DNA of 64,000 nucleotides from NCBI GenBank assembly GCA_963759805.1, contig CAVXAT010000008.1, positions 1 through 64,000 on the forward strand, given 5' to 3'. This document shows positions 3,489 through 63,659 of this stretch, piece after piece. A program made the position numbers and the translations under genes. The notes under the pieces were generated by a model that worked only from the letters and a program-made list of their open reading frames with translations, did no database searches and had not been told where the DNA came from. Source of the stretch: an uncultured bacterium. Lineage in GTDB: Bacteria; Babelota; Babeliae; Babelales; RVW-14. The stretch's first letter is position 1; every line of letters begins with the position of its first letter.

Positions 3489-3752
3489 ATGCGAGTTCGG
3501 TAACTCTAAAATTAAAGCGCAATGGATTGTGCAGTGTTTTGGTAATACTGTGTCATGCTGAACTAGTTTCAGCATCCATGGATAAATTTATTCCAAATTT
3601 TTGTAATTGAGCAATAGGAGCAACTAATCCATGGATCCCAGCCGTCGCTAAAGCTATGGCGGGCAGGCCTGAAATAAATTCAGGATGACAGACCTCTGGT
3701 CAGAAGCTACTTTTAACATCCACAGCCCTTTTACTAATTATCGAACTTGCGT
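3489..3752. mobile_element. MITE-like element A: IS982-like terminal inverted repeats, 7-bp target duplication TAATCTA, nested palindromic core
   Basis: Left end ATGCGAGTTCGGTAA, right end TTATCGAACTTGCGT; TAATCTA at 3482-3488 and 3753-3759; core TGTCATGCTGAAC...TTCAGGATGACA at 3551-3690 with a 31-nt hairpin insert at 3637-3667. Confidence 0.75.
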
Positions 3753-3764
3753 TAATCTATCAAT

Positions 3765-4460
3765 TTAAGTAGGTTTTAACATTTCGTAAAGCTCTTTTAA
3801 TGCTTTAACCGGATTTTTTTCAGAAAAAATAGATGACCCGACAACAACGGCATCGATGCCAAGCCCTGAAAGCATTTTTATGTTATCTTTGCCAATTCCA
3901 CCATCCATATAAATTTTAAAGTTTTCATTTTGAGTATTTCTGTAGGCAATGACTCTTTTAACCTTTTCAATAACCTCCGGCATAAACGTCTGTCCGGCAA
4001 AGCCCGGTTTTACAGACATTATAAGAATTTTGTCAAAAAGATTAAGATGCGATGCCACAAGAGAGATATTTGTGTGGGGATCATATATGTGAGTGTGTGG
4101 ATTAAAGGCCATTCCAACCTGCCAACCCTTTGCCTTAACTTTATCAACTAAATCTTTCATGGGCTTGAAACATTCAAATGCCTCGTAATGAAATATAAAT
4201 ACATCCTTCTTACTAAGATCCAATCTATCAACCCAACATTTTGGATGATCAACCATCAAGTGTACGTGGATTGGCTTGTGTGTTGCTTGTGCAATTGCAT
4301 TCACGAAATCCGGACCCATTGTTAAATTTGGAACAAAGTGATCATCCATAACGTCAATGTGGTAACCATCACAGTGTTCATCTAAATCAGAGATAACTTT
4401 TGCCAGATTTAGCAAATCTGCACACATCAGAGAAGGGTATATTTCCATTATCTTGGACAT
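3765..4460 (-). CDS. rpe: Ribulose-phosphate 3-epimerase
   Basis: PSLMCAD, HIDVMDDHFVPNLTMG, HVHLMV, MSVKPGFAGQ and DGGI motifs. Confidence 0.95.
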   Translation of the reverse strand: MSKIMEIYPSLMCADLLNLAKVISDLDEHCDGYHIDVMDDHFVPNLTMGPDFVNAIAQATHKPIHVHLMVDHPKCWVDRLDLSKKDVFIFHYEAFECFKPMKDLVDKVKAKGWQVGMAFNPHTHIYDPHTNISLVASHLNLFDKILIMSVKPGFAGQTFMPEVIEKVKRVIAYRNTQNENFKIYMDGGIGKDNIKMLSGLGIDAVVVGSSIFSEKNPVKALKELYEMLKPT

Positions 4461-4488
4461 TAGAATTCCTAAATTTTAAGGCTAAATT

Positions 4489-6171
4489 TTAATATCTTTC
4501 TTTTATTAAAACACTCTTGCCCTGAAAAGCAATCCCAAGCTTCAAAATTTTCTTGATACCAAAAGCGTTCAATTCTTGTGCATATTTTTTATCTTCGATC
4601 TGCTCCAACGCTGCAACAACAGCTTGCTCAAGTGTCTCTTTCTGATATTGACTTCTTTTTTTGAATTCGATTATAATACCAAGTTTATTCTTGTCATTTG
4701 GAATTAACATGACATCATAGCGCCCCAATCCACTCTCTCTATTTGATCTTATAACATATTCATTGCCCAAACTCACAAGCATTCCAAGCACAAACGCGTG
4801 ATAAAATTTTTCAGGCTCTTGTCCACTAACATCAAACATGCTAAAACTTTTCAGCACAAAATCAGTAAAAAGTTCTTTAAATTTTTCTACTTCGCCTGAG
4901 ATAAGACTATTGAGCATCAGATTGTAACGCTTCTCCCCAATATTATTTTTACACCAACTGTTAATAACATTTCTGTAAAACCATGCTACTTCATCATTAG
5001 GAATCAACAAATCGGCGTATTTTTGACCATTCTCAACGGCAGCATTTTTAAATGTCAGATATCCACTAAAAATTAAAAAGCTCCAAACAGCATTTGTAGC
5101 CTTGTTTTCCACCAAGTCTGCAAACACAATATTTTCTTCTATTGCCTTACGTATCGATTCTCTTTTTATTAAAGCCTCAAAATCTTCTTTGAGCTCATCA
5201 CTTCCATGTTGAATTAAGTCCTTAACAATATCATTGCTACTGGTATTAACCCAAAATGGCTCAAATTCACCGTTATTTTTAATCAGATTTATAATCGACC
5301 AAGGGTTATAAACATTGATTTTACTCCCGGTTGCATAACCGTTATACCAAGATTTAACATCTTCAATTTTATTTGAAAGATTATAATGGGCCATTGCATC
5401 TGCAACTTCTGTTTCCGTCATTCCAAATTTATCAGAATACAAAGATGATAGCATCGAGCAAACGCTCAAATTATTTAATCCGCTAAAAATACTCTCTTTG
5501 GCAATACGTAAAATGCCTGTGATTACGGAGAATTGAAGAGAAGCGTTGTCCTTTAGCCCTCCACTCAAAAATCCTCTGGAAAAACTAATTATCTTATCAT
5601 AATATTTGTGATAAAAACCTGCCTGAATTGGAGTATCGTATTCATCAATTAGAATAATTGGATTTTGTTTGTGGTATTTTGCAAGACTCTCAGATAGATT
5701 CTTTAACGAATTTTGATAAACAGTCATACTTGCAATTCTGTTAATTATATTTTCAAAGTCTTTTTTTTGAGTGGAGTCTAAAACATCACTTGAAAGCAAA
5801 TAATTATGTCGACGAAATTCTTCGCTTATGAGCTGCACAAGCATGTTATAGCAATCATTCCAGTTATACTGCTTCACATCTTTAAATGTCAAAAATATCA
5901 CAGGATATTTGCCCTGATTAGCCATAAATTCATGATGCTTAGAAATTTTTAGTCCGTCAAAGAGTCCTATGTTCGATGTTGTTGTTTTTTCGAAAAAATA
6001 TTTCAACATGGACAAGTTTGTGGTTTTCCCAAATCTACGGGGACGGGGGATCAATGTAGCCGCAGCACCTGAATCAAAAATTTCTTTAATAAATAGACTT
6101 TTATCAACGAAGTAGTAATCGCCGGATCTTATTATTCCAAAGTCACTTATGCCAACAGGTAATTTTTGCAT
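4489..6171 (-). CDS. AAA-ATPase-like protein with C-terminal PD-(D/E)XK (PDDEXK_9-type) nuclease domain
   Basis: LPVGISDF, RPRRFGKT, LIDEYDTP, YNPWS, SNRESGLGRYD, IIEFK; start moved to ATG 6171, which has a GGGAG RBS. Confidence 0.85.
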   Translation of the reverse strand: MQKLPVGISDFGIIRSGDYYFVDKSLFIKEIFDSGAAATLIPRPRRFGKTTNLSMLKYFFEKTTTSNIGLFDGLKISKHHEFMANQGKYPVIFLTFKDVKQYNWNDCYNMLVQLISEEFRRHNYLLSSDVLDSTQKKDFENIINRIASMTVYQNSLKNLSESLAKYHKQNPIILIDEYDTPIQAGFYHKYYDKIISFSRGFLSGGLKDNASLQFSVITGILRIAKESIFSGLNNLSVCSMLSSLYSDKFGMTETEVADAMAHYNLSNKIEDVKSWYNGYATGSKINVYNPWSIINLIKNNGEFEPFWVNTSSNDIVKDLIQHGSDELKEDFEALIKRESIRKAIEENIVFADLVENKATNAVWSFLIFSGYLTFKNAAVENGQKYADLLIPNDEVAWFYRNVINSWCKNNIGEKRYNLMLNSLISGEVEKFKELFTDFVLKSFSMFDVSGQEPEKFYHAFVLGMLVSLGNEYVIRSNRESGLGRYDVMLIPNDKNKLGIIIEFKKRSQYQKETLEQAVVAALEQIEDKKYAQELNAFGIKKILKLGIAFQGKSVLIKERY

Positions 6172-6246
6172 AAACGCACTCCCGTTATTCAACTCCACCA
6201 TTACAATAAGATTTTGTTTGATCCAGTATAACATCAAACATAGTTT

Positions 6247-7062
6247 CTAATTTATTCTACACCCCATCCTAACTTCAGATTCTCTATCATGTAAAGAATT
6301 TTGGATAAAAGTTTCACTTGGAATAATCACACCATTTTTAAAGATCATAACAATGCTGGAGCCACCGAATGCAAAGTAGCCTAATTCATCACCTTTTCGT
6401 TGAAACTTTTTTGGGTCGTAAGTTTCAACAATCTTGCCCACAAGCATTGCCCCAACGGGGACAAAAAGAACTTTGCCAAATTTTTCTGAATTCAAAACAA
6501 TTAAATGGCGTTCATTTTGGGTCAAGGGCTGAACACCTGATTTATAAACTACCGAATTCACTGACTCAAGTTTGCCGTTAATAATTTTAGGTTCGCCGGC
6601 AACACAATCAAATGGAAAATGAAATCTGTGGTAATCAGCGGGGGCTAACCTGAAAAGAAACAGCGTCCCGCCGGCAAATTCGTCTGCCAAATTTTTATCG
6701 TGTAAAAAAAGAGCAAGATCAAATGTGCACTTTTTAACAAAGAAATAAGTTTGCGCGTTTATTTCTGAAATAACCAAAAGCTTGCTGTCTGCGGGACAAG
6801 CTACCGAATCAAGATTTTGATCAATAACTCTTTTATTTGGCTTTAATTTTCGATAAAAAAATTCATTAAAAGTTTTATATCCACCCTCAGGAACAACATA
6901 TTGCGACATATCAATTTTGTTGCGCTTAATAAATGATTCAATAAAATATCGACTAAATTTTGAACCTGCAAATACACCCCAAATCCGAGAAAACCAAGGG
7001 GAGGTTATTGGAAGGCGAATCTGCCTTCCAATAAAATTTTGATAAAGAAATTTAAGCATCAT
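6247..7062 (-). CDS. psd: Phosphatidylserine decarboxylase proenzyme
   Basis: FNEFFYRKLK, PADS, RLAPADYHRFHFP and the FGGSS self-cleavage motif. Confidence 0.9.
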   Translation of the reverse strand: MMLKFLYQNFIGRQIRLPITSPWFSRIWGVFAGSKFSRYFIESFIKRNKIDMSQYVVPEGGYKTFNEFFYRKLKPNKRVIDQNLDSVACPADSKLLVISEINAQTYFFVKKCTFDLALFLHDKNLADEFAGGTLFLFRLAPADYHRFHFPFDCVAGEPKIINGKLESVNSVVYKSGVQPLTQNERHLIVLNSEKFGKVLFVPVGAMLVGKIVETYDPKKFQRKGDELGYFAFGGSSIVMIFKNGVIIPSETFIQNSLHDRESEVRMGCRIN

Positions 7063-7065
7063 CTC

Positions 7066-9561: not shown

Positions 9562-9601
9562 TCACTTCTCCTGCACGACAGATTGATCAATTGATAAAAA
9601 A

Positions 9602-9806
9602 GAGGTGCTGTAGGTTTCTATGATACCCTGTCAGCAAAAAAAAGCTACGTTTTATTGAAATTTATTGAAATAATCATATCTAGTTCTATAGACTATTTTT
9701 AGATGAAGCGATTTAAAAATCGTAAAATTGGGGAAGAGGGGGATTTTCAATGCTAAAAACTAAACGACCTTTATTACTTTTAATTGGTACGTTTGGAGTA
9801 GCGCAT
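9602..9806 (+). repeat. Direct repeat copy 1 of a ~205-bp divergent promoter/RBS/signal-peptide-start block
   Basis: Near-identical to 14507-14711 (GAGGTGCTGTAGGTTTCTATG...GTACGTTTGGA..GCAT); an extra matching piece lies at 9561-9576 vs 14487-14502. Confidence 0.9.
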
Positions 9807-11349
9807 GGCTATTCATAAACGATTATTTGTTGTTACCACAATAATAATTTTTAACATTCTTTATATTGCCGCAGTATTTCCTGCACAAAGGCCAGCCCCA
9901 CAGCCTGCACAGCAACCTACACAACAATTAGCAGAGCTGCGATCAGATATAGATATTGCAAAAGCAGAAACTGAAAAAGTTTGGGACAATTTAGCTGCTG
10001 CGCTGCTTAGAATAAATAAAATAAACTTAATATCAAGGGAAGCGGCTGAAGAAGTCGTACGTACTCGTAAAGATAACATTGAAGCAATAACAAGAATTGA
10101 AGCGCTACGAATTAGTACGGAACAGGTTCAAGGTGTACTTGCAGCAGTAGGACACTCTGTTACAAATTTTGCACGTGAGGTTGAGCAGGTGAGTATAAAA
10201 GAAAAGGCAGGTATCACAGCACATGCAGCGGAAGCAGGAAAATTGCTAGAAAAATCTATTGATGAAGCTTTTAAAAAAAACAACAATCCCGAGCTAGCGA
10301 AAGAGAAAGCAAAAATTATGGCTCAAATAAAATGGGAAAAAATTCAAGAAATTATAAGTGACCCAAAGCTTTTGACGAAAATTGCTATTACAATTGTAGT
10401 CATTGCATTGTGTATCTACATACTCAAATATGGCTTACCAGTACTTGTAAATTATTTGACAAGACCACGTGTTATAAGTGAAACATCAAGACCTGGATTG
10501 TTTGAATGGTTTAAACCAAAACAAACCGTTAATATTGATGACTTAATTTTTACACCCTCTCTGCAAAATCAACTTTTTGATCTCTTATTACGCGTACAAA
10601 CGGCAAAAAAATATAATGAAGGGCTTCCCAATGTCCTTTTTCACGGAGCTCCAGGAACTGGCAAGACCGCATTTGTTAAAGCATTGGCTTATGAATCAGG
10701 ACTTGATTATGCATTAACATCTGGTTCAGAATTTGCAAAAATTACGGACCTTAACCAGGCTAACAACGAATTACGAAAGCTCTTAAATTGGGCAAAAAGA
10801 AGCAAAAATGGACTGATTGTTTTTATTGACGAGGCTGAATCTTTGTTTGCAAATAGAAAGTTGCAAACCACATCCAAAGCAACACAAGACTTTATAAATA
10901 CATTTTTATCTCTCGTTTCAGATCAATCACAAAAAAAAGTTATGTTTATTTTCGCAACTAATCACCCATTTAAGCTTGATGATGCAATTACCAATCGCGT
11001 TGGAATAAACATTGAGTTTACTTTGCCAGAAGCACCCGAACGAGAAAAAATTCTTTCTGTATATCTTGTAAAATCTGCCCAAGAAAATGAAGCTGCTATT
11101 GTTGATTTGCATCCAGACGTTATAAAATTGCTTCCAATGTATGCAGATGAGCTTAAAGGGTTTTCGCCACGAGCTATTAAATTTGTTGCCGAAGAGATGA
11201 TTATTAATGCACGACGACAAGAATCTATGCAGTTAACTAATGACATTGCGCAAGCAGTAATGGACCAGGCAAAACATAGCTTGCGGCAAGCAGTTCTGTG
11301 GGAAACAGAACGTAAAGCATGGAGTGGAGATTCAAATGTTATTCATTAG
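9805..11349 (+). CDS. AAA+ ATPase, ATAD3-like, with signal peptide, coiled coil and TM segment
   Basis: Walker A GAPGTGKT, Walker B VFIDEAE, SGLDYA, ATNHP..LDDAITNR; ISETSR after the TM helix as in ATAD3. Confidence 0.8.
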   Translation: MAIHKRLFVVTTIIIFNILYIAAVFPAQRPAPQPAQQPTQQLAELRSDIDIAKAETEKVWDNLAAALLRINKINLISREAAEEVVRTRKDNIEAITRIEALRISTEQVQGVLAAVGHSVTNFAREVEQVSIKEKAGITAHAAEAGKLLEKSIDEAFKKNNNPELAKEKAKIMAQIKWEKIQEIISDPKLLTKIAITIVVIALCIYILKYGLPVLVNYLTRPRVISETSRPGLFEWFKPKQTVNIDDLIFTPSLQNQLFDLLLRVQTAKKYNEGLPNVLFHGAPGTGKTAFVKALAYESGLDYALTSGSEFAKITDLNQANNELRKLLNWAKRSKNGLIVFIDEAESLFANRKLQTTSKATQDFINTFLSLVSDQSQKKVMFIFATNHPFKLDDAITNRVGINIEFTLPEAPEREKILSVYLVKSAQENEAAIVDLHPDVIKLLPMYADELKGFSPRAIKFVAEEMIINARRQESMQLTNDIAQAVMDQAKHSLRQAVLWETERKAWSGDSNVIH

Positions 11350-12448
11350 CCTTCTCCCGAAACCCAACAAATCCCCCAAGCCCGCTCGTGGTGAGCTTGT
11401 CGAACCATCGACCGTCTTGTCCGTCGTAGCTCGAAGAGCGAAGTCGGAAGGGCGACGGACAAAGTTTCTGATTTTCACAAATTTGAGATATCTGTTTTTT
11501 TGCTTTGCATGTTTTATTGCTTTGAGTAATCACAGTCCATTATTAGCACAAGATACTGGTGAAAATATAGCTTCTATACCGAAAAAAATGGGCACTGACG
11601 AGTTTAAGGCGCTTGTAGAAAATATTTATGATCTTCTCCTCCAAGGACATTCGGCCGATGATATTGTAAAAATACTTGAGACTGAAAAAGCGGGCCCATA
11701 CAATATTAAAAAACTTGTAGCACACATTTATGATCTTTTAAATAAACAAAATTCACAGAATACAATCATAAACATTATTGTGAATAATAATGGATCTAAA
11801 GAATATCGCGCTCGAACAAATTTTTTAAACATTTTAACAAATCCAGCAACTTTTTACCTTGCATTAAAAATCATTGCCATCATTCTCGCTGTTATAGTTA
11901 CTTGTTACGTATTGGCACGATACTTTTCCGGAAAATCCGGTTTTTTCAATGGGGCACCACAACCTAAAAATAGGTGCTCTGTCAAAAATCTTAGTAAAAA
12001 ATCTAATGATTATGAATTGTCTAATCCGGATATCTTGCCTTTCGACAATGCGCCTCAATTAATTGAAAAACAAGAAATGCATGGACATGAAATTTCAGTG
12101 CAAGCTGCACCAAAAACACTGCCTGGAACGCATCCAACAAGTCAAAGCTGTGCGCCTGCGAGTGAGAAAACAGGTCCAGCAATAATACAAAATCAACAGT
12201 CCCCATCAGTAATTTGTATTAAAAAGATTGCGGTTAATGATGAATTAATGGAAGAAGCAAATAGAATGGTTGAATGTGCAATAAGCTTATGCCCCAATTT
12301 TGTAAAACCACCGCATGTAGATATACGAGGCATGCGTACTATCGGAGAGGCTGCCGCTAAAGAACCAATCGACACCCGAAAGCTCAGTGAAATAATAGAC
12401 GAAAGCATTAGTGAATTCAACAGATTGGGTGAACAACTTAGAAAATGA
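11336..12448 (+). CDS. Hypothetical secreted/membrane protein with a palindromic-element-derived N-terminal insert
   Basis: ATG 11336 with GGAG RBS; hydrophobic signal-like stretch and one TM helix; no recognised domain. Confidence 0.6.
   Translation: MLFISLLPKPNKSPKPARGELVEPSTVLSVVARRAKSEGRRTKFLIFTNLRYLFFCFACFIALSNHSPLLAQDTGENIASIPKKMGTDEFKALVENIYDLLLQGHSADDIVKILETEKAGPYNIKKLVAHIYDLLNKQNSQNTIINIIVNNNGSKEYRARTNFLNILTNPATFYLALKIIAIILAVIVTCYVLARYFSGKSGFFNGAPQPKNRCSVKNLSKKSNDYELSNPDILPFDNAPQLIEKQEMHGHEISVQAAPKTLPGTHPTSQSCAPASEKTGPAIIQNQQSPSVICIKKIAVNDELMEEANRMVECAISLCPNFVKPPHVDIRGMRTIGEAAAKEPIDTRKLSEIIDESISEFNRLGEQLRK
11348..11464. repeat. Palindromic element copy in the 5' end of the 11336 ORF
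   Basis: 11383-11408 is the exact reverse complement of 19141-19166 in gpmI; followed by a TTGTCCGTCG...CGACGGACAA hairpin. Confidence 0.8.
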
Positions 12449-12496
12449 TAATTATATTTTTAAAAAAAGTTAAAACATGGAGAGGGGGTAACTATT

Positions 12497-14474: not shown

Positions 14475-14506
14475 GCGGTAAATTCCTTCACTATTCCTGC
14501 ACAAAG

Positions 14507-14711
14507 GAGGTGCTGTAGGTTTCTATGGTATCCTGTCAGCAAAAAAAAGCTACGTTTTATTGAAATTTATTGAAATAATCCTAACGAGTTCTATAGACTA
14601 TTTTTAGATGAATCGATTTAAAAATCAGAGAAATTGGGAAGAGGGGGACTTGCAATGCTAAAAGCTAGACTACTTTTATTACTTTTAATTAGTACGTTTG
14701 GAATCCTGCAT
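14507..14711 (+). repeat. Direct repeat copy 2 of the promoter/RBS/signal-start block
   Basis: Matches 9602-9806. Confidence 0.9.
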
Positions 14712-16341: not shown

Positions 16342-16345
16342 ACTT

Positions 16346-17032: not shown

Positions 17033-17034
17033 CT

Positions 17035-18455: not shown

Positions 18456-20237
18456 ATGAATAACAAAGACAAACACCCCCCAATAATGCTTGTAATCCTT
18501 GATGGCTTTGGATATAACCCTAATTCATCCGGCAACGCCGTGGCACACGCCAAAATGCCGTTCTGGACCTGGCTGATACAAAATTACCCCCACACATTAC
18601 TGCGTGCGGCAGGGGAAGATGCCGGATTACTCCCGGGGTATATCGGCAACTCAGAAGTTGGACACCTAACAATCGGGGCAGGACGTATTGTTGAATCCGT
18701 TCTTAAAAAATTTCATGATGAAATTATTAGCGGCAAGTTTTTTGAAAATAAAATGTTAATAAATAATTTTAATAAGTTAAGAGAAACAAATAAAGCCCTA
18801 CATATAATTGGCTTACTATCAGATGGAGGCGTACACAGCCATGAATCCCATCTTTATGCCTTTTTAAAATTGGCAAAAACTATTGGGATAAAAAAGGTCT
18901 TTGTTCATGCAATTCTTGACGGACGCGACGTGGCCCCCAAAAGTGCTGCCACTTACCTTAGTCGACTAGAAAATGAGTGTAAAAATTTAGGCTGTGGCAA
19001 AATTGCAAGCATCGGCGGAAGATTTTATGCCATGGACCGAGATGGGAATTGGGACAGAACCAAACAGTTCTATGATATGCTGGTTGGAGCAACCACACAG
19101 AATAGACTTTTTGGGGAACCTGGCGCGTCACCCAAGGGTGATGGTTCGACAAGCTCACCACGAGCGCGCCTACTTAATGGCGTTCGTCCTGCTATGCCCG
19201 GCGTAGCCACGAAGGGCGAAGCCTGGGAGCCTGTCGAAGGATGCGAGTGTCAGACGAGATCTAATGAACAAGCAAACAAATCAATTGTAAACCAAACCTG
19301 GGAAACTCTTCTTGAACACGAATATAAATCCGGAAGAACCGACGAATTCGTAACCCCTATACTTATTCAACCCGAAGGCTTTGTTAAGCAGGGCGATGGC
19401 GTAGTTTTTTTCAACTTCCGCCCCGACCGCGCACGTCAACTCACGGAAAGCTTTATCAACCCAAATTTCAATAAATTCCCAACTCAAAATTTATGCAGCA
19501 CAAATCATGAACTTGCATTCTTCATAACTACCACACGTTATAACGAAGATTTTGCAAAATTTAATAATGACGTTTTGTTTGAGCGTGAAAAAATCGCAAA
19601 CACACTTCTGGACATATTTTCCCAACAAAAAAATCCCCGAGATGAATCTCGAAAAGTATTTATAGTTGCCGAAACCGAAAAATATGCCCACGTAACATAC
19701 TTTTTTCACGGCATGCAAGATTACCAAGCGCCAAACGAAACAAGGGTATTAATCTCATCAATAAAAACCCAAAACTATATAAATTATCCTGAAATGTGCG
19801 CAAACGATATAACAACCACCGTTTTGAACTCTTTAAAAACATATCCTGCTGATTTTTATCTGATTAATTATGCCAATGCCGACATGGTTGGACACTCCGG
19901 AGACTTTGACGCAACGGTTAAGGCGTGTGAGTGCCTGGACAAACAACTTGAGCAACTGTACAAAGTTTTTGTTGAAAAAATGGATGAAACAATGTTTATC
20001 ACCGCCGACCACGGCAATGCCGAGGAAAAAATAGATCCAATAACCGGCACCCCACTTACGGCACACACAAAAAACCCGGTCCCATTTATTTTTGTAAATA
20101 AAGGCATGCAGGGCAAGCAAGACACGAGCTGGCCAACCGAACCCAAATTTGGCCTATCAAATATTGCACCAACAATACTAAATTTTATGGAGTTAAACAT
20201 CCCCAAAGAAATGGTAAAACAAAAAATAGAATTTTAA
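18456..20237 (+). CDS. gpmI: 2,3-bisphosphoglycerate-independent phosphoglycerate mutase carrying a 53-aa in-frame insert
   Basis: ILDGFG, GNSEVGH, SDGGVHSH, DGRD, YAMDRD, NFRPDRARQ, ETEKYAHVT, DMVGH, ADHGN all intact. Confidence 0.96.
   Translation: MNNKDKHPPIMLVILDGFGYNPNSSGNAVAHAKMPFWTWLIQNYPHTLLRAAGEDAGLLPGYIGNSEVGHLTIGAGRIVESVLKKFHDEIISGKFFENKMLINNFNKLRETNKALHIIGLLSDGGVHSHESHLYAFLKLAKTIGIKKVFVHAILDGRDVAPKSAATYLSRLENECKNLGCGKIASIGGRFYAMDRDGNWDRTKQFYDMLVGATTQNRLFGEPGASPKGDGSTSSPRARLLNGVRPAMPGVATKGEAWEPVEGCECQTRSNEQANKSIVNQTWETLLEHEYKSGRTDEFVTPILIQPEGFVKQGDGVVFFNFRPDRARQLTESFINPNFNKFPTQNLCSTNHELAFFITTTRYNEDFAKFNNDVLFEREKIANTLLDIFSQQKNPRDESRKVFIVAETEKYAHVTYFFHGMQDYQAPNETRVLISSIKTQNYINYPEMCANDITTTVLNSLKTYPADFYLINYANADMVGHSGDFDATVKACECLDKQLEQLYKVFVEKMDETMFITADHGNAEEKIDPITGTPLTAHTKNPVPFIFVNKGMQGKQDTSWPTEPKFGLSNIAPTILNFMELNIPKEMVKQKIEF
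19104..19262 (+). mobile_element. In-frame palindromic element (RPE-like) inside gpmI
   Basis: 159 nt = 53 codons; AGA...TCT ends flanked by AAT on both sides; homologous to the insert in fcl. Confidence 0.85.
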
Positions 20238-45362: not shown

Positions 45363-45397
45363 TGTCATCCTGAATTTATTTCAGGATCCATGGATTA
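45363..45397 (-). repeat. Solo half of the palindromic core, in the empty state
   Basis: TGTCATCCTGAATTTATTTCAGGATCCATGGATTA is the reverse complement of the right arm of elements A and C without the 31-nt insert. Confidence 0.85.
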
Positions 45398-49673: not shown

Positions 49674-49706
49674 ATGAATACACCTCAATTTTACAAATCT
49701 TTGATT

Positions 49707-54015: not shown

Positions 54016-54042
54016 AACAGTCCCAAAGCTACAAAGAGTGTA

Positions 54043-54690: not shown

Positions 54691-54755
54691 GGCAACCCCT
54701 ATCAAAGAATAGCGACCTAAATAAAACTAACATAAAAATATATACATAAAATTTA

Positions 54756-55127
54756 ACGCCAGTTCGATAACTATTCGACAACTAATTATTTCTTAGATTT
54801 CTGTCCTGAATACTCTTTGGAGCGAAATTTTTCCGCCGTCAACCATGGCCAAAGACTGTGTCATGCTGAATTTATTTCAGCCCCGTCCGCCATAGCCACG
54901 AGTGCAACGAGGGCGACGGCTGGAATCCATGGATAAATTAAGTTCATAATATTTTTTATATGAATTTTACTAATCCATGGATCCTGAAACGAGTTCAGGA
55001 TGACAAACTAGACTGATGAAAGCAATCTAACGCTTCAAACAGTTGCAAAATAAATTCAGGATGACAAAGTATTCCAAAGCTCATACAATGCACATGTAAG
55101 CCAATTTCAAAGTCATCGAGTTTGCGT
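54756..55127. mobile_element. MITE-like element B with nested palindromic core
   Basis: ACGCCAGTTCGATAAC ... GTCATCGAGTTTGCGT; core 54859-55005 with a 43-nt hairpin insert at 54882-54924; extra half-arm at 55048-55066. Confidence 0.7.
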
Positions 55128-55185
55128 TAATTTTATGTATCATATCAAGATTAATCTGAACAATCTACCCAGATTGTAGAATTTT

Positions 55186-56736
55186 CTAGCTATCAGTTTT
55201 GTCGAGTAGATTCTTTTGCACAACAGCCTCCAGCATTTTGATTTCCTCATCTGTAAGCATCTTGAAATGAGTTGCCCTTTTACCTTGCGAAAGCGTGCCA
55301 TTGTTTTGTGTCGTAACTCTTATGAATAAATCAAGCTGTTGGTCAGGCATGTCAACGATTTGGCTGAGCTCTTTCTTTGTTTTGTCATAATTTGTTAAAT
55401 ACAAAAGTTCTTTCTTAAAATCAGTGTGAATTGTTTTCTCAATACATGATGCCAGATACTCTGCCTGAGCCGTGTAATCTATATACTTATAAAATTGTGC
55501 AGTTTTCTGTTTAACCGTTAAAACCCCATCATCATTTACTTCGTAATCTGAAATCAAAGACATAAGTGGTTTTGAAAAGCGTTCGAGAGTCTCATTGTAG
55601 CGCTGCATGTCGGCAAGTATGGTATCTGAGATCGGAAATATTGTACCGGCAGGAACAAATCCGGTTCTGTGTAAAATATAGTGAATTAAAAAACGATGCA
55701 AACGACCGTTGCCATCATCAAATGGATGTATAAAAACAAATCCGAATGAAATTGCTGAAGCAATAACAATTGGATGAACACCACTCTCAAGCATGCGCTC
55801 AAGCTCTGCTAGTAGCCCCGTCATTAAGGCATTAACATCTTCAGGCTTGGGTGAAATATAGTAAATGAGTTGATCGTACCAGTCCAGTTTTTGACCAACA
55901 TAATTTTGGGTTGTTCTATAAGAATTATTTACAAACCTATCTTCAACCAAACTGTTTTGAAGTTTTATAAGAATTTCATTTGTTAAATTTGGAACTTCCT
56001 CAACTTTTTTTATAAGTTGGATAAATCTTGCTAACCGTTGCTTGCTTGGAACCTCACGTTCAATCTGATAAGATGACATTGTTTCTTTGGCGTACAAGTA
56101 ATTGCTTGCTCGATTGATTATTTGTTGATCGTACGATTTAACTATATCCCTGGCCACAATATCAAGCTTTTTATGCTCAATGGACTTCAATAAATCAGTC
56201 TTTCTCACAAATGAGCAAAAGTAAATTGAGCCAAAAAGATTATGATTAATTCGATAACGTCGATGCTGAATGGATTTTGCGGCGTAGTACTCTTCTTCAT
56301 CCAGCAAATCAACGTAAGAACCCTGCTCCAAATCCGGAACTTCAAGATCTATTCCGGTTAATTTTTCATAAAGATACCAAACCATGCGTTGATATTTACC
56401 CGTTCGTTGCTCTTCTATAAACTTTTGTACGATTTTATTTGGGACATGGTCACTTGTAATGCAGTTAAAAAAAGCCGAAATTATTTCAAGATTTAAGCCC
56501 TCATGCTTAAGCGCAAATACAAGATTTTGCATTGAATCATCCGGATTATCAAGAACATACCCTTGGTCATAGAGGTAAATTTCCGGCATAGAAAGATTAG
56601 TTGGGTCTTTCAGAACCTTTCTGGCCCCAGATTCAATAATATAAGACCAACGAAAATGCGGTATTACATTAAGTTTATAATTATTGACCAGCCACAAATA
56701 TCCAACCGGCTTTGCCTTTGGCGGAATGATCTCCAT
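55186..56736 (-). CDS. Fic domain protein
   Basis: Canonical HPFDDGNGRLHR motif. Confidence 0.92.
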   Translation of the reverse strand: MEIIPPKAKPVGYLWLVNNYKLNVIPHFRWSYIIESGARKVLKDPTNLSMPEIYLYDQGYVLDNPDDSMQNLVFALKHEGLNLEIISAFFNCITSDHVPNKIVQKFIEEQRTGKYQRMVWYLYEKLTGIDLEVPDLEQGSYVDLLDEEEYYAAKSIQHRRYRINHNLFGSIYFCSFVRKTDLLKSIEHKKLDIVARDIVKSYDQQIINRASNYLYAKETMSSYQIEREVPSKQRLARFIQLIKKVEEVPNLTNEILIKLQNSLVEDRFVNNSYRTTQNYVGQKLDWYDQLIYYISPKPEDVNALMTGLLAELERMLESGVHPIVIASAISFGFVFIHPFDDGNGRLHRFLIHYILHRTGFVPAGTIFPISDTILADMQRYNETLERFSKPLMSLISDYEVNDDGVLTVKQKTAQFYKYIDYTAQAEYLASCIEKTIHTDFKKELLYLTNYDKTKKELSQIVDMPDQQLDLFIRVTTQNNGTLSQGKRATHFKMLTDEEIKMLEAVVQKNLLDKTDS

Positions 56737-57050: not shown

Positions 57051-58244
57051 ATGTTTTTAGAAAGATCCATTACCGATATGCTTCTTCGTTTCGCAAAATT
57101 TCCGGTTGTTGGCCTCTTTGGCCCGCGACAGTCAGGAAAAACAACTCTGGTTAAAGCAGTTTTTAAAAATCACCGTTACCTCAACTTTGAAGATCCTGAA
57201 ACACGAGAACTTGCCACAACCGACCCAAAGCGTTTTTTACAGGAGAATGAAAACAAGCATGGCGTTATTTTGGATGAGTTTCAGTATGTTCCCCAAATTC
57301 TTTCGTACGTACAAATAGAGTCTGATGAAAAAAAACGGCCGGGGTATTTTGTTTTGACGGGTTCTCAAAATTTTTTGATGAATCAAGCTGTTACGCAATC
57401 ATTAGCAGGCAGAATTGGAATTCTTACACTTCTTCCATTATCAATCAAAGAACTCAAACAAAATAATCTATTATCCCAATCCGTTAATGAACTAATTCTA
57501 AAGGGTGGTTATCCCAAAATCTATACTGAAAAATTTGACCCAGGCGAGCTTTATCCTTCCTATATTCATTCCTATGTCGAACGTGATATTCGTCAACTGG
57601 TTAACGTTGAAAACTTAAGAACATTTCAACGGTTCATGCAACTATGCGCAGGAAGAATTGGTCAACTTCTGAATATTTCTGATATAGCAATGAACTGTGG
57701 AATTAATAGCAGAACAGCAGAAAAATGGCTTTCTATTTTACAAGCAAGTTATATAATTTTTTTATTAAGTCCTTATCACGAAAATTTCAATAAACGTGTA
57801 ACTAAAACACCAAAACTTTATTTTTATGATACCGGTCTTGCCTGCTCTTTGTTAGATCTTAAATCACCTGAAACCATATCGCTAAGTCCTTTTCGCGGTC
57901 ACCTTTTTGAGTCATTTATAATTGCAGATTTATTTAAACAGTACTTCAGCCTTGGAACCAATGCTCCATTGTATTTTTGGCGTGATAAAAATGGCTACAT
58001 TGAGATAGATTGTCTTATTAACATGGGCAATAAACTCGTACCAATTGAGGTCAAATCGGGCCAAACGATTATGACTGATTTTTTTGATGGACTTTCGAAA
58101 TGGAATGTAATAGCAGAATCTTCACCAGACAATGGATATGTCATTTATGGTGGTGATGCTGTACAAAAACGTAGTGCAGGAAACATTATTGGTTGGCAGA
58201 CATCAGGCGATTTAATTAATACCATAGAAAATAAAAGCCGTTAA
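57051..58244 (+). CDS. AAA_14/DUF4143-type ATP-binding protein
   Basis: GPRQSGKTT, LDEFQ, TGSQ, SLAGR, GGYP, PKLYFYDTGL, EID..IEVK. Confidence 0.88.
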   Translation: MFLERSITDMLLRFAKFPVVGLFGPRQSGKTTLVKAVFKNHRYLNFEDPETRELATTDPKRFLQENENKHGVILDEFQYVPQILSYVQIESDEKKRPGYFVLTGSQNFLMNQAVTQSLAGRIGILTLLPLSIKELKQNNLLSQSVNELILKGGYPKIYTEKFDPGELYPSYIHSYVERDIRQLVNVENLRTFQRFMQLCAGRIGQLLNISDIAMNCGINSRTAEKWLSILQASYIIFLLSPYHENFNKRVTKTPKLYFYDTGLACSLLDLKSPETISLSPFRGHLFESFIIADLFKQYFSLGTNAPLYFWRDKNGYIEIDCLINMGNKLVPIEVKSGQTIMTDFFDGLSKWNVIAESSPDNGYVIYGGDAVQKRSAGNIIGWQTSGDLINTIENKSR

Positions 58245-58260
58245 TTTTTGTGCTAATCTA

Positions 58261-58654
58261 ACGCCAGTTCGAGAATTAGTTACGGCTTTATTTTTGCTCT
58301 AAATGTTCTTTGTTAAGCATTTTTGCCGTGCACGCCGTAGCATTTCAAATGCGAAGGCTGTGTCATGCTGCCGTGCCCGCCGAAGCGGCGAGCTATCCTT
58401 CGCCCAGGTGGCTACGGAGGCCGGCGCGAAGGCTGGGAACTCGTTTCAGCATCCATGGATAAATTTATTCCAAATTTCTGCAATTGGGCAATAGGAGCAA
58501 CTAATCCATGGATTCCAGCCGTCGCCAAGGCTATGGCGGACAGGCCTGAAATAAATTCAGGATGACACCGTTCTCACTCGAGGCTTCTGTGGGAACAGCA
58601 AAAAACATCTTTCAGTAGCTGTTTCCAGTGAGTATCGAGTTATCGAGTTCGCGT
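58261..58654. mobile_element. MITE-like element C with multiply nested palindromic core
   Basis: TAATCTA|ACGCCAGTTCGAGAA ... TTATCGAGTTCGCGT|TATCTA; core 58361-58567 nearly identical to A, with inserts at 58371-58437 and 58514-58544; another hairpin at 58326-58360. Confidence 0.75.
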
Positions 58655-59781
58655 TATCTAGAATCATGCCTAAAAACTTTTTGCATGGCTGATTCCTTTG
58701 GATGAAATTCATCAAAAAAATCACTGTCTTCTAAATGATTTATTGATGGATCAAAATCCCCAACAACTTTTATCCCGTTTTTTTGTGCAATATTTATAAA
58801 ATAATCTCGCACAGAGCAAACCAATTTATATTTCTCAGAAGCTTTTAATAACTCGTATGCTTTTGGATGATATGGCGTCAGAAAGAAAGTTACCGATACT
58901 TTATCATGCAACAATAGTTTGATAAAAAGCTCAAACAGCATAGCTGTTCCCGCGTCAATCCTGTTAAAATTACCCAAATGAGCAAAGCCCTTTTCTTTGA
59001 TACCCGCAAGAACCTGGTGATTGACTTCCTCAACACTTCTCGACCTTCGAACTAATCCATAATTTATACTTCCGTCAGCAAGCATTACTTCAGAGACGGC
59101 AAAATTTTCTTTTGTTGGATAAAAAACACCAATGCCTTTAAATCCACACTCATGTAATAAAACGTTTACAACATACATCAATGAATTTCGAAATAAATCT
59201 ATTGAGACTAAGCGTTGTGCAAATTCCAATGATTTTTCAGCAATCTGCTTATGACTATCAGGACCGTCAGAGAAGCTAAATATAGAGAAAACACTAGAGT
59301 CAATTGTAGATAGAAAATCTGAGTCAACTTCCATAAACTTATCTTTAATTACATCCATCAAGTCGCTTTGAGATTTACCTTTTAAAAGCCATACATCAAG
59401 GCCTAAGATTACATGCGACGGAACAAGTCCTTTTTCTCGCCATAAAAAATAAAAATAAATAAAATTTTCGAGTCGACCATCTGTAACGCTTGTGTTAAAA
59501 AAAGTTTTGCTAGGGAACAACTTGCTGTTAATTCCCAATGAACGGCTTGAGCCAAACACAAGGGTGTCTTTTTCTTGTGCAGCACTCTTTGCATAAAACT
59601 CTTTTATACAACAGTCGCCGCATGTGTACGCATTGGCAATGTTGTACCCTTGCAGGAGGTAATGCGCAGCTTCGCGTGCATTGTTTTGTAAAAGATTTGT
59701 TTTTTCTACAATGTAATTAACTGCTACTATAAATATGGGGATTGGCAGCAGGTACATCATTTTTTTTAAAAAAATATTCAT
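58654..59781 (-). CDS. SGNH/DltD-like periplasmic partner of the MBOAT acyltransferase
   Basis: N-terminal TM helix, FGSSR, C-terminal DEFH (DxxH); adjacent to MBOAT. Confidence 0.6.
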   Translation of the reverse strand: MNIFLKKMMYLLPIPIFIVAVNYIVEKTNLLQNNAREAAHYLLQGYNIANAYTCGDCCIKEFYAKSAAQEKDTLVFGSSRSLGINSKLFPSKTFFNTSVTDGRLENFIYFYFLWREKGLVPSHVILGLDVWLLKGKSQSDLMDVIKDKFMEVDSDFLSTIDSSVFSIFSFSDGPDSHKQIAEKSLEFAQRLVSIDLFRNSLMYVVNVLLHECGFKGIGVFYPTKENFAVSEVMLADGSINYGLVRRSRSVEEVNHQVLAGIKEKGFAHLGNFNRIDAGTAMLFELFIKLLLHDKVSVTFFLTPYHPKAYELLKASEKYKLVCSVRDYFINIAQKNGIKVVGDFDPSINHLEDSDFFDEFHPKESAMQKVFRHDSR

Positions 59782-59792
59782 GCGTATATCCC

Positions 59793-61250
59793 CTAAAATT
59801 GAAAGTAAATAAACCTTGAAGCCCCAAGCATGCCAAATAAAATAATGCTCCAAATAAGCAGATAATATAAAGCCCAGCGAACATAGGTTGGTTGGGCATT
59901 AACTCGCGCTATTAAATCATTACGATTAGCCCACAGTTGAATAGTTTCAAGTATTATTATCGAAGCTATCGCAATCAAAAAATCTACTTTTGATCGTCCA
60001 CAAAAAATTGACTCTATCCCACCGCCTCGAGAGGCACCCCATGGGCCATAAAATATTTTTTTTATAATAAGAAAAGCACCGGAAATACTTTCTGCTCTGA
60101 AAAAAATCCATGCAAAACAGATAAGCCCAAAAGTTATAGTAACTTGCAATGATTTATGTAGAGCAGGAAATTTATCAATCTTAATATATTGAACAAATGC
60201 TTTTCGCCATGATTTAGTGGCAGCACCAATGATAAGATAAACACCATTGAGAGCACCCCAAATAACATAGGTCCAATTTGCACCATGCCAAAGTCCGCTA
60301 AGTAAAAATGTTATAAAAAGATTTCTGTAAACTTTGCTGACAGACACACGGTTACCACCAAGCGGTATATACACATAATCACGAAACCAGTTAGAAAGTG
60401 AAATATGCCAACGTCGCCAAAATTCTGAAATTGATTTTGAGGCATAGGGCCGGTCAAAATTCAGCATCAACTTAAATCCCATAACTTGAGCGGCTCCAAG
60501 AGCAATGTCAGTATATCCTGAAAAATCACAGTAAATTTGATATGCAAAAAATATCGTTGCAACCGTAAGAGATGTCCCATCACGTGATGCCGTTTGTGTA
60601 TAAATTTGATTTACAAATAAAGCCAACCTGTCTGCAATAACCAGCTTTTTAAAAAATCCCCATGTCATTAATTTTAAACCGTCAGTTACCCGTTGATAAT
60701 CAAAATTATGTTTTTCATAAAACTGATGTAATAAATTTTGAGGGCGCTCGATTGGGCCTGCCACGAGTTGCGGATAAAACATCACATAAAGAGAGTATAT
60801 TCCAAAATGTCGCTCTGCTTTTTGCCGCCCGAAATAAACCTCTATCGTGTAACTCATGGCTTGAAAAGTATGGAATGATAAGCCAATTGGCAAGATTATA
60901 TCCAACTCAGGAATGGGGTTGGTAAATCCAAACCAATACGCCAAACCAGAAACACTACTGTTAAAAAAATTAAAATATTTAAAAAAACATAAAATCGATA
61001 AATTTGAAATTAGGCTTAGAAGCAAAAAAAGTTTTCTTCGATTATCCGAGGCACCTTCAATAAGAATTCCCGCTATATAATCAATAATTATCGTAAAAAA
61101 TAGAATCAAAATATAAACGGGAATAAAAGACATGTAGAAAATGCAGCTTGCTATCAGTAGCATAAGCCAGCGCCACCTGTGCGGCAAGATAAAGTACAAA
61201 CTTGTTACGATTGGAAAGAAAATTGCAAATTCAAGCGAATTAAAAAGCAT
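59793..61250 (-). CDS. MBOAT family O-acyltransferase (AlgI/DltB/PatA-like)
   Basis: MLFNS, LPIGLSFHTFQ, GPIER, YCDFSGY, FWRRWHISLS, GLWHGANW. Confidence 0.93.
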   Translation of the reverse strand: MLFNSLEFAIFFPIVTSLYFILPHRWRWLMLLIASCIFYMSFIPVYILILFFTIIIDYIAGILIEGASDNRRKLFLLLSLISNLSILCFFKYFNFFNSSVSGLAYWFGFTNPIPELDIILPIGLSFHTFQAMSYTIEVYFGRQKAERHFGIYSLYVMFYPQLVAGPIERPQNLLHQFYEKHNFDYQRVTDGLKLMTWGFFKKLVIADRLALFVNQIYTQTASRDGTSLTVATIFFAYQIYCDFSGYTDIALGAAQVMGFKLMLNFDRPYASKSISEFWRRWHISLSNWFRDYVYIPLGGNRVSVSKVYRNLFITFLLSGLWHGANWTYVIWGALNGVYLIIGAATKSWRKAFVQYIKIDKFPALHKSLQVTITFGLICFAWIFFRAESISGAFLIIKKIFYGPWGASRGGGIESIFCGRSKVDFLIAIASIIILETIQLWANRNDLIARVNAQPTYVRWALYYLLIWSIILFGMLGASRFIYFQF

Positions 61251-61290
61251 GGCGGCTGCTTAATTTAAAATAGTTAAAATGTTAGGGAAA

Positions 61291-62364
61291 TCAGGGTTGT
61301 CCCGTTATGCTCTCATTCCATATATTATTCTTAATATTATTTTTCGATTTTGAAAATGACCGGTCTTTATCGGGAAATAGATCCTGTACCATTTGCTGCA
61401 TCTGTTCAATGGACAGCCATTCTTTGTTGTTGCCACTATGATACTCAAAATCATCTATAACAGGAGTCCCACAAACTTTGTGTTTGGATACGCTACCTAA
61501 GCCAAATGACGGCTTAACAACATAATGCGTCTCAAATTCTTCTGTGTTTCGTGCATCTTCGCGCGTAATCATAACTTCATGAATTTTTTCACCGGGACGA
61601 ATCCCTACCTCTACCATTTTCATATCCGGCGCCATGGCTTGCGCCAAGTCAATCATGCGCATCGACGGAATTTTTTTAACAAAAAGCTCACCACCTTGCA
61701 TAATATCAAGAGCCATTAAAACCATATCCACCGCCTGTTCAAGCCTTAGCCAAAAACGAGTCATCCTGAAATCTGTAATTGGAAGCTCTTTTGCCCCCTT
61801 ATCTATTAAATCTTTAAAATATGGAATTACAGAACCACGGCTACCTGCCACATTTCCATATCTGACAACGCTGAAACGCGTATCATGAGAGCCAACGTAA
61901 ACATTACCGGATATAAAAAGCTTGTCCGAACAAAGTTTTGTCGCTCCATACAAATTTACAGGGGCACATGCTTTGTCTGTGCTTAAGGCAACAACCCTTT
62001 TAACATTACGATCAATAGCAGCATCAATAACATTTTGAGCCCCAATAATATTAGTTTTTACAGCTTCAAATGGATTGTATTCACATGATGGAACTTGTTT
62101 TAATGCCGCAGCATGAATTACAACATCAACGCCATCAAACGCGCGAATGAGCCGATCTTTGTCACGAACATCACCAACAAAAAACCGCAATCGTGAATTA
62201 TCTTTAAACTCTGGCATGTTTGACATTTCAAACTGCTTGAACTCATCGCGAGAAAGAACAGCAATTCTTTGCACCTCAGGATGTTTTTGTAAAATTGTTT
62301 TTATAAAAGCTTTACCGAATGATCCGGTCCCGCCTGTGACAAGAATCGATTTGTATTTTAACAT
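61291..62364 (-). CDS. pseB: UDP-N-acetylglucosamine 4,6-dehydratase (inverting)
   Basis: TGGTGSFG, SRDE.KQ, HAAALKQVP, STDKA, YGATK, RYGNV.GSRGSV, MTRFW, GIRPGEK. Confidence 0.95.
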   Translation of the reverse strand: MLKYKSILVTGGTGSFGKAFIKTILQKHPEVQRIAVLSRDEFKQFEMSNMPEFKDNSRLRFFVGDVRDKDRLIRAFDGVDVVIHAAALKQVPSCEYNPFEAVKTNIIGAQNVIDAAIDRNVKRVVALSTDKACAPVNLYGATKLCSDKLFISGNVYVGSHDTRFSVVRYGNVAGSRGSVIPYFKDLIDKGAKELPITDFRMTRFWLRLEQAVDMVLMALDIMQGGELFVKKIPSMRMIDLAQAMAPDMKMVEVGIRPGEKIHEVMITREDARNTEEFETHYVVKPSFGLGSVSKHKVCGTPVIDDFEYHSGNNKEWLSIEQMQQMVQDLFPDKDRSFSKSKNNIKNNIWNESITGQP

Positions 62365-63659
62365 GATATCATACTCCCCTTCTCTCGCAGTAATATCTGC
62401 TGGTAACTATCACAATACCATTCGTAAGTTTTTTTTATTCCGGATTCAAGTGGAGTTTGTACCCTCCATCCTAATTTTGAAATTCTGTTTACATCCAGCA
62501 ACTTGCGAGGCGTTCCATCTGAACTGGCATGATCAAATTTAATATCACCATCAAACCCAACAATGTTTTTTATTAATTGTGCAAGCTCAGAAATTTTTAA
62601 ATCAGTGCCAACCCCAATGTTAATACACTCGCCAAGATCTTTAAAATCATAGTTATTAATTAAAAGAATCAAGGCTAGCCCCAGATCATCTACATGTAGG
62701 AATTCTCGATACACAGCACCTGTTCCCCACAACACCAAAGCCTCTGGAGTAATACCAAATTTTGCAAGCAACTCTGTTATTTCAGAATCACTAAAAATTT
62801 CAATAGATCTCTTCTGTAACTCGCATCCTTCGACAGGCTCCCAGCCTTCGCCCTTCGTGGCTACGCCGGGCACGGCAGGACGATCCTTCGACAGGCTCCC
62901 AGCCTTCGCTTGGGATAGCTTCGGCGGGCACGGCAGGATGAGCGGCCTGCTTGCCTGGGCGCCGTAGCTATCCAAGCGAAGGCGGCTCGAACCATCACCC
63001 TTGGGTGACGCGCCGGGTTGGGGCAACCCAAATTTTTCAAAATCAGATCTAATACTTGAAAAATCTTTGGCTGCAAGCAACTTGGCCAAATGAAATTTTC
63101 TAATCATAGCAGGTAGAACATGCGCAGTTTCAAGATTAAAATTATCATTTTGGCCATAAAGATTTGTGGGCATTACTGAGATAAAATTTGTTCCATACTG
63201 TTCATTAAAATATCTGCAAAGCTTGAGTGCAGAAATTTTTGCAATGGCATACGCCTCGTTTGTCGGCTCTAACAACCCGGAAAGCAGATACTCTTCTTTA
63301 AGAGGCTGTGGTGCGTTTTTGGGGTAAATGCATGATGACCCTAGGTTAAGTAACTTTTTAACGCCAAACTTATGAGAGGCATGAATGACGTTGGCCGATA
63401 TCATTAAATTATCATAAATAAAATCAGCCTTTTGCGTACTGTTTGCCCAAATTCCACCAACTTTTGCTGCAGCTAAGAAAACATATTCAGGACGATTTTC
63501 TTGAAAGAAAGCTTCAACTTGAGCCTGTGATCTCAGATCAAGATCTTGAAAATCTTTTGTAACAATATTTTTATATCCGTGTTTTTTTAAAGCTCTTAAA
63601 ACTGCAGATCCAACTAGACCGGTATGCCCTGCTACATAAATTTTAGAATCAACCTGCAT
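62358..63659 (-). CDS. fcl: GDP-L-fucose synthase carrying an in-frame palindromic insert
   Basis: AGHTGLVGSA, AAAKVGGI, LGSSCIYP, YAIAK, MPTNLYG, HVLPA, WGTG..YREFLHVDD, DGTPRK. Confidence 0.95.
   Translation of the reverse strand: MQVDSKIYVAGHTGLVGSAVLRALKKHGYKNIVTKDFQDLDLRSQAQVEAFFQENRPEYVFLAAAKVGGIWANSTQKADFIYDNLMISANVIHASHKFGVKKLLNLGSSCIYPKNAPQPLKEEYLLSGLLEPTNEAYAIAKISALKLCRYFNEQYGTNFISVMPTNLYGQNDNFNLETAHVLPAMIRKFHLAKLLAAKDFSSIRSDFEKFGLPQPGASPKGDGSSRLRLDSYGAQASRPLILPCPPKLSQAKAGSLSKDRPAVPGVATKGEGWEPVEGCELQKRSIEIFSDSEITELLAKFGITPEALVLWGTGAVYREFLHVDDLGLALILLINNYDFKDLGECINIGVGTDLKISELAQLIKNIVGFDGDIKFDHASSDGTPRKLLDVNRISKLGWRVQTPLESGIKKTYEWYCDSYQQILLREKGSMISC
62805..63050 (-). mobile_element. 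In-frame palindromic element (RPE-like) inside fcl
   Basis: 246 nt = 82 codons, bounded by AGATCT at both ends with AAT outside each; homologous to the gpmI insert; the gene-upstream boundary could be up to ~10 codons further in. Confidence 0.8.

Follow-up and report, generated by a model that had tools for sequence, protein, structure and literature searches.

Tagged hairpin modules of 30 to 45 nt nested in other palindromes and tRNA genes of a Babelota genome, and their putative mobilization by SLX1-like GIY-YIG nucleases

The closest described systems to the element studied here are the hairpins cut by Ssn nucleases and the repetitive extragenic palindromic (REP) sequences. According to the parts of the Ssn report considered here, SsnA binds a CGTC-tagged hairpin as single-stranded DNA (ssDNA) and cuts one strand only, 3 nt before CGTC, and the mobility of the hairpins associated with SsnA is only hypothesized (PMC11893778). 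The supplement of that report treats the SLX1-like proteins as a sparsely characterized sister group, and prokaryotic Slx1-like GIY-YIG proteins were predicted to be DNA repair enzymes (PMC1564403, passages considered). Some REP families sit inside larger palindromes and in genes; in the same partial source, no transposase was found for CGTC repeats, and the spread of CGTC-type repeats and of Rickettsia-like palindromes, including into genes, was left open (PMC3733652). The passages considered from PMC10969869 and PMC3733652 name no mobilizer of Rickettsia palindromic elements (RPE). In this study, we analyzed 64,000 nt of an uncultured bacterium of the Babelota (assembly GCA_963759805.1, contig CAVXAT010000008.1, positions 1 to 64,000; C8:1-64000 in our contig numbering), hereafter called the window, from a genome (G000) of 1.5 Mb with 37% GC that is 89% complete; one of its genes has its closest named relatives in the Babeliales/Dependentiae. 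An earlier note, made from the letters of the window alone, had described small imperfect hairpins inserted into the arms of larger palindromes. We found that this hairpin, called the module below, is a genuine mobile hairpin family.

The module is a GC-rich DNA hairpin of 30 to 45 nt, with about 130 copies in the genome. Read along its G.A strand, it consists of a leader of 2 to 3 nt, a TGYC tag entering a 6-bp stem, an internal loop (RWA/GWM), two further pairs, and a variable loop, and it terminates at the base of the stem. A structure-based scan of the genome gave 122 matches, compared with 1, 1, and 1 in three order-3 Markov genomes, and an anchor-only scan that did not require pairing gave 94 matches, compared with 2, 1, and 0 in the null genomes. 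The merged list held 143 anchors, of which 9 were dropped as false or doubled and 134 were used. In the copies found by their anchors only, the stem covaried: across 48 arm types, 5.19 of the 6 positions were paired, whereas shuffled partners gave 3.98 ± 0.11. The folding energy of single copies was no better than that of shuffled sequences (z scores of -1.0 to +0.8). At 63 inserts with exact junctions, the tag was TGCC in 29, TGTC in 23, and different in 11. GTAG was absent from the ends of the module and was found only within the stem. Rfam gave zero matches in the window and only tRNA and transfer-messenger RNA (tmRNA) matches in five loci of the nuclease gene leader described below.

The eight inserts of the earlier note were confirmed in position and length (31, 31, 43, and 67 nt between genes; 36, 36, 36, and 33 nt within genes; Table 1), but its inventory had overlooked two further modules and an outer tier of miniature inverted-repeat transposable elements (MITEs). 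For seven of the eight, the 16-mer that excision would leave is present at other places in the genome (2 to 14 times); the host arm of the eighth, the 33-nt module, has diverged. The junctions of the window inserts carry a duplication of 0 to 2 nt. Other genomes gave further pairs of empty and filled sites. The insert in the phosphoglycerate mutase gene (iPGM) was missing in 25 of 25 orthologues spanning the site (26 fetched). At the epimerase site, the aligned stretch measured 291 nt here, with a three-module composite, and 210 nt in the sister species G002, with a different, one-module composite; the site was empty in four other relatives (57 to 93 nt). The intergenic site between rpe and ddl (locus A) was empty in both G002 and G003. 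In addition, host positions filled here were occupied in G002 by other modules (20 module loci fetched of 28 pattern matches). Because the modules at identical host positions differ, these positions act as insertion hotspots and the module is mobile independently of its hosts, and the comparison with G002 indicates independent insertions at fixed hotspots. For polymorphism between strains, the only candidate read set was one DNA run containing 0.06 of the words, with no RNA set; contigs from this run were short pieces of other organisms and were left aside. Both the empty and filled pairs and the absence of target duplication reported in the earlier note were thereby upheld.

Next, we examined the targets of the module. 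By loose motifs searched within 40 nt, 120 of the 134 anchors fell within or next to a hairpin repeat, a tRNA gene, or another module. The hosts and tRNAs together make up about 9 kb of the 1.5 Mb (~0.6% of the genome). The hosts were mostly two other hairpin repeat families (family A and family B/C), the module family itself, and the 3' ends of tRNA and tmRNA genes, in agreement with the preference for hairpin arms noted earlier. Where a module sat within the body of a family A, B, or C hairpin, it lay on the tagged strand of the host in 25 of 25 pattern matches. The left flank ended in G at 44 of 63 junctions and was otherwise variable, with no longer consensus. In 19 of 43 tRNA and tmRNA genes, a module stood at the junction between the discriminator base and CCA, and its first bases usually restored CCA. 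Duplicated tRNA fragments next to an intact gene were likewise interrupted by modules, in their D or T arm. One such array holds nine tandem 5' fragments of tRNA-Val with a module in each D arm, followed by an intact tRNA-Val gene without encoded CCA and by a 3' fragment whose T arm is interrupted (L214:150-1010, on G000 C19). In another, a 149-nt unit is repeated three times, and each unit holds a 3' fragment of tRNA-Arg with one module in its T arm and one after CCA (L215, G000 C14:13130-13720). Nesting was also found in the reverse direction: B/C hairpins occur inside modules, and one of these lies inside a module that is itself inside family A. The multitier nesting of parasites on parasites proposed in the earlier note is reciprocal and not a one-way hierarchy.

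The genome carries five short GIY-YIG genes. Their products and those of 30 relatives (85 proteins from 31 genomes) were placed in a quick tree of 97 columns, in which three groups were split by two long branches, each with 100% support in the Shimodaira-Hasegawa-like approximate likelihood ratio test (SH-aLRT). The columns of the catalytic Tyr, Gly, Arg, and His residues did not vary among the three clades. Clade 1 (29 proteins), as judged by eye, had TGTC/CGTC-hairpin-CCA repeats, family A among them, on its flanks; at C1:132943, a family A hairpin stood on both sides of the clade 1 gene. Clade 2 (18 proteins) had family B/C hairpins upstream in 14 and downstream in 11, compared with 0 among the other 67 proteins, by a flank pattern composed after inspecting the flanks. 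Clade 3 (38 proteins) had the module within 260 nt upstream in 37 of 38 cases, compared with 5 of 47 in clades 1 and 2. The module stood downstream of 6 of the 38 clade 3 genes, and a tRNA was nearby in 25; flanking by the own hairpin on both sides was seen for clades 1 and 2 and not for clade 3. In a GTDB scan, the hairpin was present at 23 of 27 clade 3-type relatives (2 of these 27 repeat loci of the 31-genome set), compared with 5 of 53 other matches, and the relatives with the hairpin included Patescibacteria, Verrucomicrobia, Alphaproteobacteria, and Chlamydiae. Among 151 genomes of the phylum, at least four modules were found in 69 of 93 genomes with a clade 3 gene and in 9 of 58 without one. 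The clade 3 protein has 80 residues and matches PF01541, and SLX1 proteins are the nearest to it among solved structures (E = 2.5e-7). Clade 3 probably lies outside CDD cd10448, because it is separated by the fully supported long branches from the clade flanked by SRM-like hairpins and its best match is SLX1; the CDD labels used here are those that we take to apply to the clades. In this genome, the clade 3 nuclease is encoded outside the window, behind tRNA genes. At L086, L102, L115, and L118, a clade 3 gene lies between an intact tRNA and a duplicate of the tRNA 3' end whose T arm is split by a module. Additional short GIY-YIG genes, mostly from Patescibacteria and accompanied by unrelated palindromes, were located after a partial tRNA 5' copy and before an intact tRNA (L149-L151, L179, L186, L188, L198, and L200), and further nuclease-hairpin pairs likely exist.

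Many clade 3 genes share a leader in which the tRNA is followed by the module, a spacer rich in AT, an antisense copy of CA joined to the first 8 module bases, a second hairpin, and the gene. The long-range helix formed by the antisense copy begins at the CCA of the tRNA and covaries. Of 63 leaders, 27 could be anchored, and in these 6.6 of 8 positions were paired, compared with 4.6 ± 0.2 across shuffled loci (maximum of 5.6 in 5,000), with 36 leaders unscored and a few rows misanchored. The leader folds on both strands and as DNA or RNA. In the predicted fold, the two leader helices abut and the tRNA end remains as a 5' flap. A 5' flap is one type of substrate of SLX1. A tRNA with the full two-helix leader and no nuclease gene was also observed, preceded by two split 5' fragments (L216, G000 C11:19400-19800).

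The length of the inserts was compared between coding and noncoding sites, with coding status assigned by our own open reading frame (ORF) and hexamer score plus inspection. Among the 63 exact-junction inserts, lengths were multiples of 3 in 21 of 21 gene interiors, 6 of 6 gene ends, and 13 of 36 noncoding sites, the last becoming 13 of 27 after tandem arrays were collapsed (P = 0.11 versus the expected third). This test has some circularity, since an insert out of frame would break up its own ORF. Only 13 types are represented among the 21 coding inserts, and many of the inserts lie in one B/C composite with one shared 36-nt module; 14 copies in genes were in sense and 6 in antisense orientation. 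In proS, a 30- to 31-nt module gave a net gain of 27 nt over five of five orthologues, indicating that the net length and not the module length is constrained. This gene and two others (L207, proS; L208; L209) carry modules directly, as short loop peptides, with net gains of 27, 30, and 57 nt over orthologues, respectively. In-frame insertions in conserved genes that are absent from orthologues, similar to those of RPE, were thus seen in the iPGM, epimerase, and proS genes and in two more. The earlier note had proposed that lengths are multiples of 3 only in coding copies (4 of 4, against 0 of 4 intergenic). The lengths in the window are right, but the 0 of 4 is chance and, with 13 of 36 noncoding inserts genome-wide being multiples of 3, the general claim does not hold. 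A frame bias as a property of the element was rejected on the 13 of 27 noncoding inserts; the pattern in genes is ordinary purifying selection.

From these comparisons of sequences, we infer that the module is rather probably a nonautonomous ssDNA hairpin mobilized by the 80-residue SLX1-like GIY-YIG nuclease of clade 3. All eight window inserts start 2 to 3 nt ahead of the tag position, and since SsnA cuts 3 nt before its own tag, the clade 3 enzymes would release the 5' end likewise. The nuclease would bind the folded single strand and nick it just before the tag, as SsnA does, to generate the 5' end of the module; a nick at or near the stem-loop junction of another folded hairpin or of a tRNA gene would provide the target end, and the two would be sealed together through ligation by the host or template-switch repair. 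Copies that break a reading frame would then be purged, which would leave multiples of 3 in genes. The action in trans proposed in the earlier note is counted as supported. A wider reading is conceivable and is offered tentatively: stand-alone GIY-YIG nucleases of 80 to 95 residues may form a class of ssDNA transposases distinct from the HUH and DDE enzymes, with each clade moving its own tagged hairpin and the SLX1-like clade homing to tRNA 3' ends by the two-helix leader with its 5' flap. The hairpins would then parasitize each other because all of the enzymes cut folded single strands.

Several points weigh against mobilization by the clade 3 nuclease. GIY-YIG enzymes are hydrolases, and we know of no strand-transfer step among them. 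No observation explains the 3' end of the module or the cut in the target. The Ssn paper, in the parts considered, shows cutting only (PMC11893778). The two clade 3 copies of this genome are not intact as seen, the one on C5 being frameshifted near its end and the one on C18 being cut by the contig end. Nine of the 58 genomes without a detected clade 3 gene hold 5 to 26 modules; related genomes are not independent, and the leader of the gene itself adds one or two modules to each count. The tree was a quick search on its 97 columns. The target classes were assigned from loose motifs found within 40 nt, and the preference looks stronger than it is because insertions elsewhere are selected against. 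Finally, four modules within tags lie on the opposite strand (C13:6464, C16:5465, C16:8718, and C21:6817).

The reciprocal nesting, the placement of modules on the tagged strand of the host, the few target bases lost at some junctions (proS), and the tandem arrays of tRNA fragments, which resemble repair products, would also fit a process in which the nucleases only break DNA at their own hairpins and template-switch repair copies any nearby GC-rich hairpin. There would then be no dedicated mobilizer, and the link to clade 3 would mark a recognition or regulatory site. We consider this unlikely, since the module has precise ends that stay the same over many kinds of target, the insertion points in families A and B lie in the middle of an arm and not before the tags where their own enzymes would cut, and the number of modules follows clade 3. 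Another account would be duplication of all nested copies from one ancestral composite, with no independent movement of the module, as the sharing of one 36-nt module by many coding copies and the reduction of 21 inserts to 13 types might suggest. At least nine junction classes with different modules were found, however, the same module type occurs at different sites, genes such as proS were entered directly, and different modules occupy the same site in a sister species. This account is refuted except for part of the coding copies, and as a general explanation it has hardly any probability left.

A role chiefly as a structured RNA signal, either a tRNA 3' trailer or a regulatory leader of the nuclease gene, spread as a passenger by gene conversion, would account for the module after 19 of 43 tRNA and tmRNA genes and for the covarying helix from the tRNA CCA. 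It appears improbable, because the D and T arms of tRNAs and loops of proteins are interrupted by the module too, in either orientation, no Rfam match was obtained, and folding of the leader is possible on both strands, whether as DNA or as RNA. Imperfect hairpins, one functional strand, and a lack of target duplication are traits of HUH systems, and the earlier note had accordingly named IS200/IS605 or REP/RAYT as the driver. The module, taken as a REP-like element, shares these traits, and the genome has five Y1 matches. Of the four Y1 proteins scanned, three exceeded the IS200/IS605 cutoff and the fourth was a weak fragment; none of the three matches to RAYT passed the NF047646 cutoff in this 89% complete genome. 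The Y1 genes end in other hairpins, the only copy beside modules has an identical twin without modules, and the module lacks a terminal GTAG and tracks a GIY-YIG clade. A Y1 driver was therefore discarded as the explanation and is given a very low probability. An origin of the module as an IS200/IS605 derivative was rejected on the differing Y1 ends and the variable target tetranucleotide.

Loci A, B, and C of the window (Table 1) lie in MITEs that share their ends with a 1,004-bp DDE insertion sequence (three copies) and have target duplications of 4 to 5 bp. The Pfam family of this insertion sequence is DDE_Tnp_1_3, which we take to be of the IS982 type. Family A hairpins were inside four of five MITE-like pairs found by scanning, in addition to locus B. 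The classical traits of MITEs, terminal inverted repeats and target duplication, are thus present in the outer tier and absent from the module, with its 0 to 2 nt. Further sites of this tier are located at C1:52939, C1:85715, and C2:123184 of G000. The direct repeat D3 (9598/14503) was rejected as a MITE; it belongs to a 209-nt upstream region that is duplicated (9598-9806 and 14503-14711, 89% alike) together with the start of a signal peptide-like ORF. A Fic domain gene (55186-56736) and an AAA_14/DUF4143 gene (57051-58244) lie between MITE loci B and C, and two paralogous gene pairs (41313-43136/52303-54015 and 24490-26115/26146-27627) are 72 to 81% alike over repeated stretches. The overlooked module at the left end of the locus C pair was either inserted in the family A tag or itself split by the family A pair.

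Table 1. Module copies, host hairpins, and MITE loci in the window; for modules, the strand is the G.A strand
Feature	Position	Strand	Remarks
MITE, locus A, outermost tier	3488-3753	.	Inverted ends of 1,004-bp DDE insertion sequence; 5-bp target duplication
Head-to-head family A hairpin pair	3551-3690	.	TGTC tag, CCA tail; CGTC-REP/SRM-like
Module, 31 nt	3637-3667	-	In 3' arm of family A hairpin
Module overlooked earlier	11416-11448	+	Adjoins family C hairpin; right end ± 1 nt
iPGM gene with in-frame B/C composite	18456-20237	+	Pfam; ~135 nt longer than in sister species, in variable loop
Module, 36 nt	19192-19227	+	In 5' arm of family B hairpin, within iPGM gene
Empty family A hairpin	45363-45397	+	
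MITE, locus B	54755-55128	.	5-bp target duplication; contains family A pair
Module, 43 nt	54882-54924	+	In 3' arm of left family A hairpin; tag is CGTC
MITE, locus C	58260-58655	.	4-bp target duplication; contains family A pair 58361-58567
Module overlooked earlier	58326 to about 58362	+	Left end of locus C family A pair
Module, 67 nt	58371-58437	+	In family A 5' arm; second module (about 58392-58425, other strand) in loop
Module, 31 nt	58514-58544	-	In 3' arm of right family A hairpin
NAD-dependent epimerase gene with in-frame composite	62358-63707	-	Pfam
Module, 36 nt	62840-62875	-	In family B 5' arm, epimerase gene
Module, 36 nt	62898-62933	-	In second family B 5' arm, epimerase gene
Module, 33 nt	62954-62986	+	In loop/3' arm of family C hairpin; no exact empty junction in genome

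One genome thus offers three nuclease-hairpin pairs with mapped insertion ends and empty and filled sites, so the question comes within reach of biochemistry on oligonucleotides and a protein of 80 residues. If mobilization by clade 3 is true, sequence-specific ssDNA nucleases extend beyond the Ssn clade, the module would be a putative, very small kind of mobile DNA, and an explanation would be at hand for the short peptides that recur in proteins of Dependentiae and of other uncultured bacteria. If the wider transposase class is also true, it would supply the missing mobilizer for CGTC-type REPs and RPE-like elements. Literature searches, with most subscription journals outside their coverage, returned no description of the module or of its link to clade 3. 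Its motifs were not found in four supplements of PMC3733652, whose consensus figures for 28 REP families were outside the comparison, or in the searched supplements of PMC11893778 (files 13 and 14 excluded). In PMC1564403, the string "palindrom" is absent from the main text, and a link to tRNA genes was not found in the passages considered.

Among known systems, IS200/IS605 elements (TnpA Y1, peel-and-paste) resemble the module in the recognition of ssDNA hairpins, strand polarity, and lack of target duplication, but their catalytic fold is different and the module has no fixed target tetranucleotide. The GTAG- and CGTC-tagged REPs, REPINs, and RAYT, as far as described in the passages of PMC3733652, share tagged palindromes of 20 to 45 nt, dimers, and in-frame copies in genes; unlike them, the module has no terminal GTAG or RAYT, and each hairpin family here has a GIY-YIG partner. 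Rickettsia palindromic elements are also GC-rich, in-frame palindromes in housekeeping genes of an AT-rich, host-associated bacterium (PMC10969869 and PMC3733652, in part), whereas RPE-1 measures about 150 bp and the module measures 30 to 45 nt and favors hairpins and tRNA ends. The clade 3 proteins share a minimal GIY-YIG domain with the prokaryotic stand-alone Slx1-like proteins (PMC1564403, in part; PDB 7wme, 4xlg, and 1zg2), which are their best sequence matches in the structural database. The published SRM pattern had two matches in the genome, neither in the module nor in family A, and was found in 0 of 38 clade 3 flanks and in 4 and 6 of 29 clade 1 flanks. The Ssn system (SsnA, cd10448, NTS/SRM; PMC11893778, in the parts considered) likewise pairs a single-domain GIY-YIG gene with a one-sided tagged hairpin, and the left end of the module, 2 to 3 nt before a YGTC-like tag, fits the SsnA cut 3 nt before CGTC. 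Family A, as a host, shows the TGTC-hairpin-CCA arrangement and stands on both sides of a clade 1 gene. Unlike the Ssn hairpins, the module pairs with the SLX1-like clade, has an internal G.A loop, and precedes its gene behind a tRNA. Altogether, the module behaves as an Ssn/SRM pair does, but the tests run place it outside that system.

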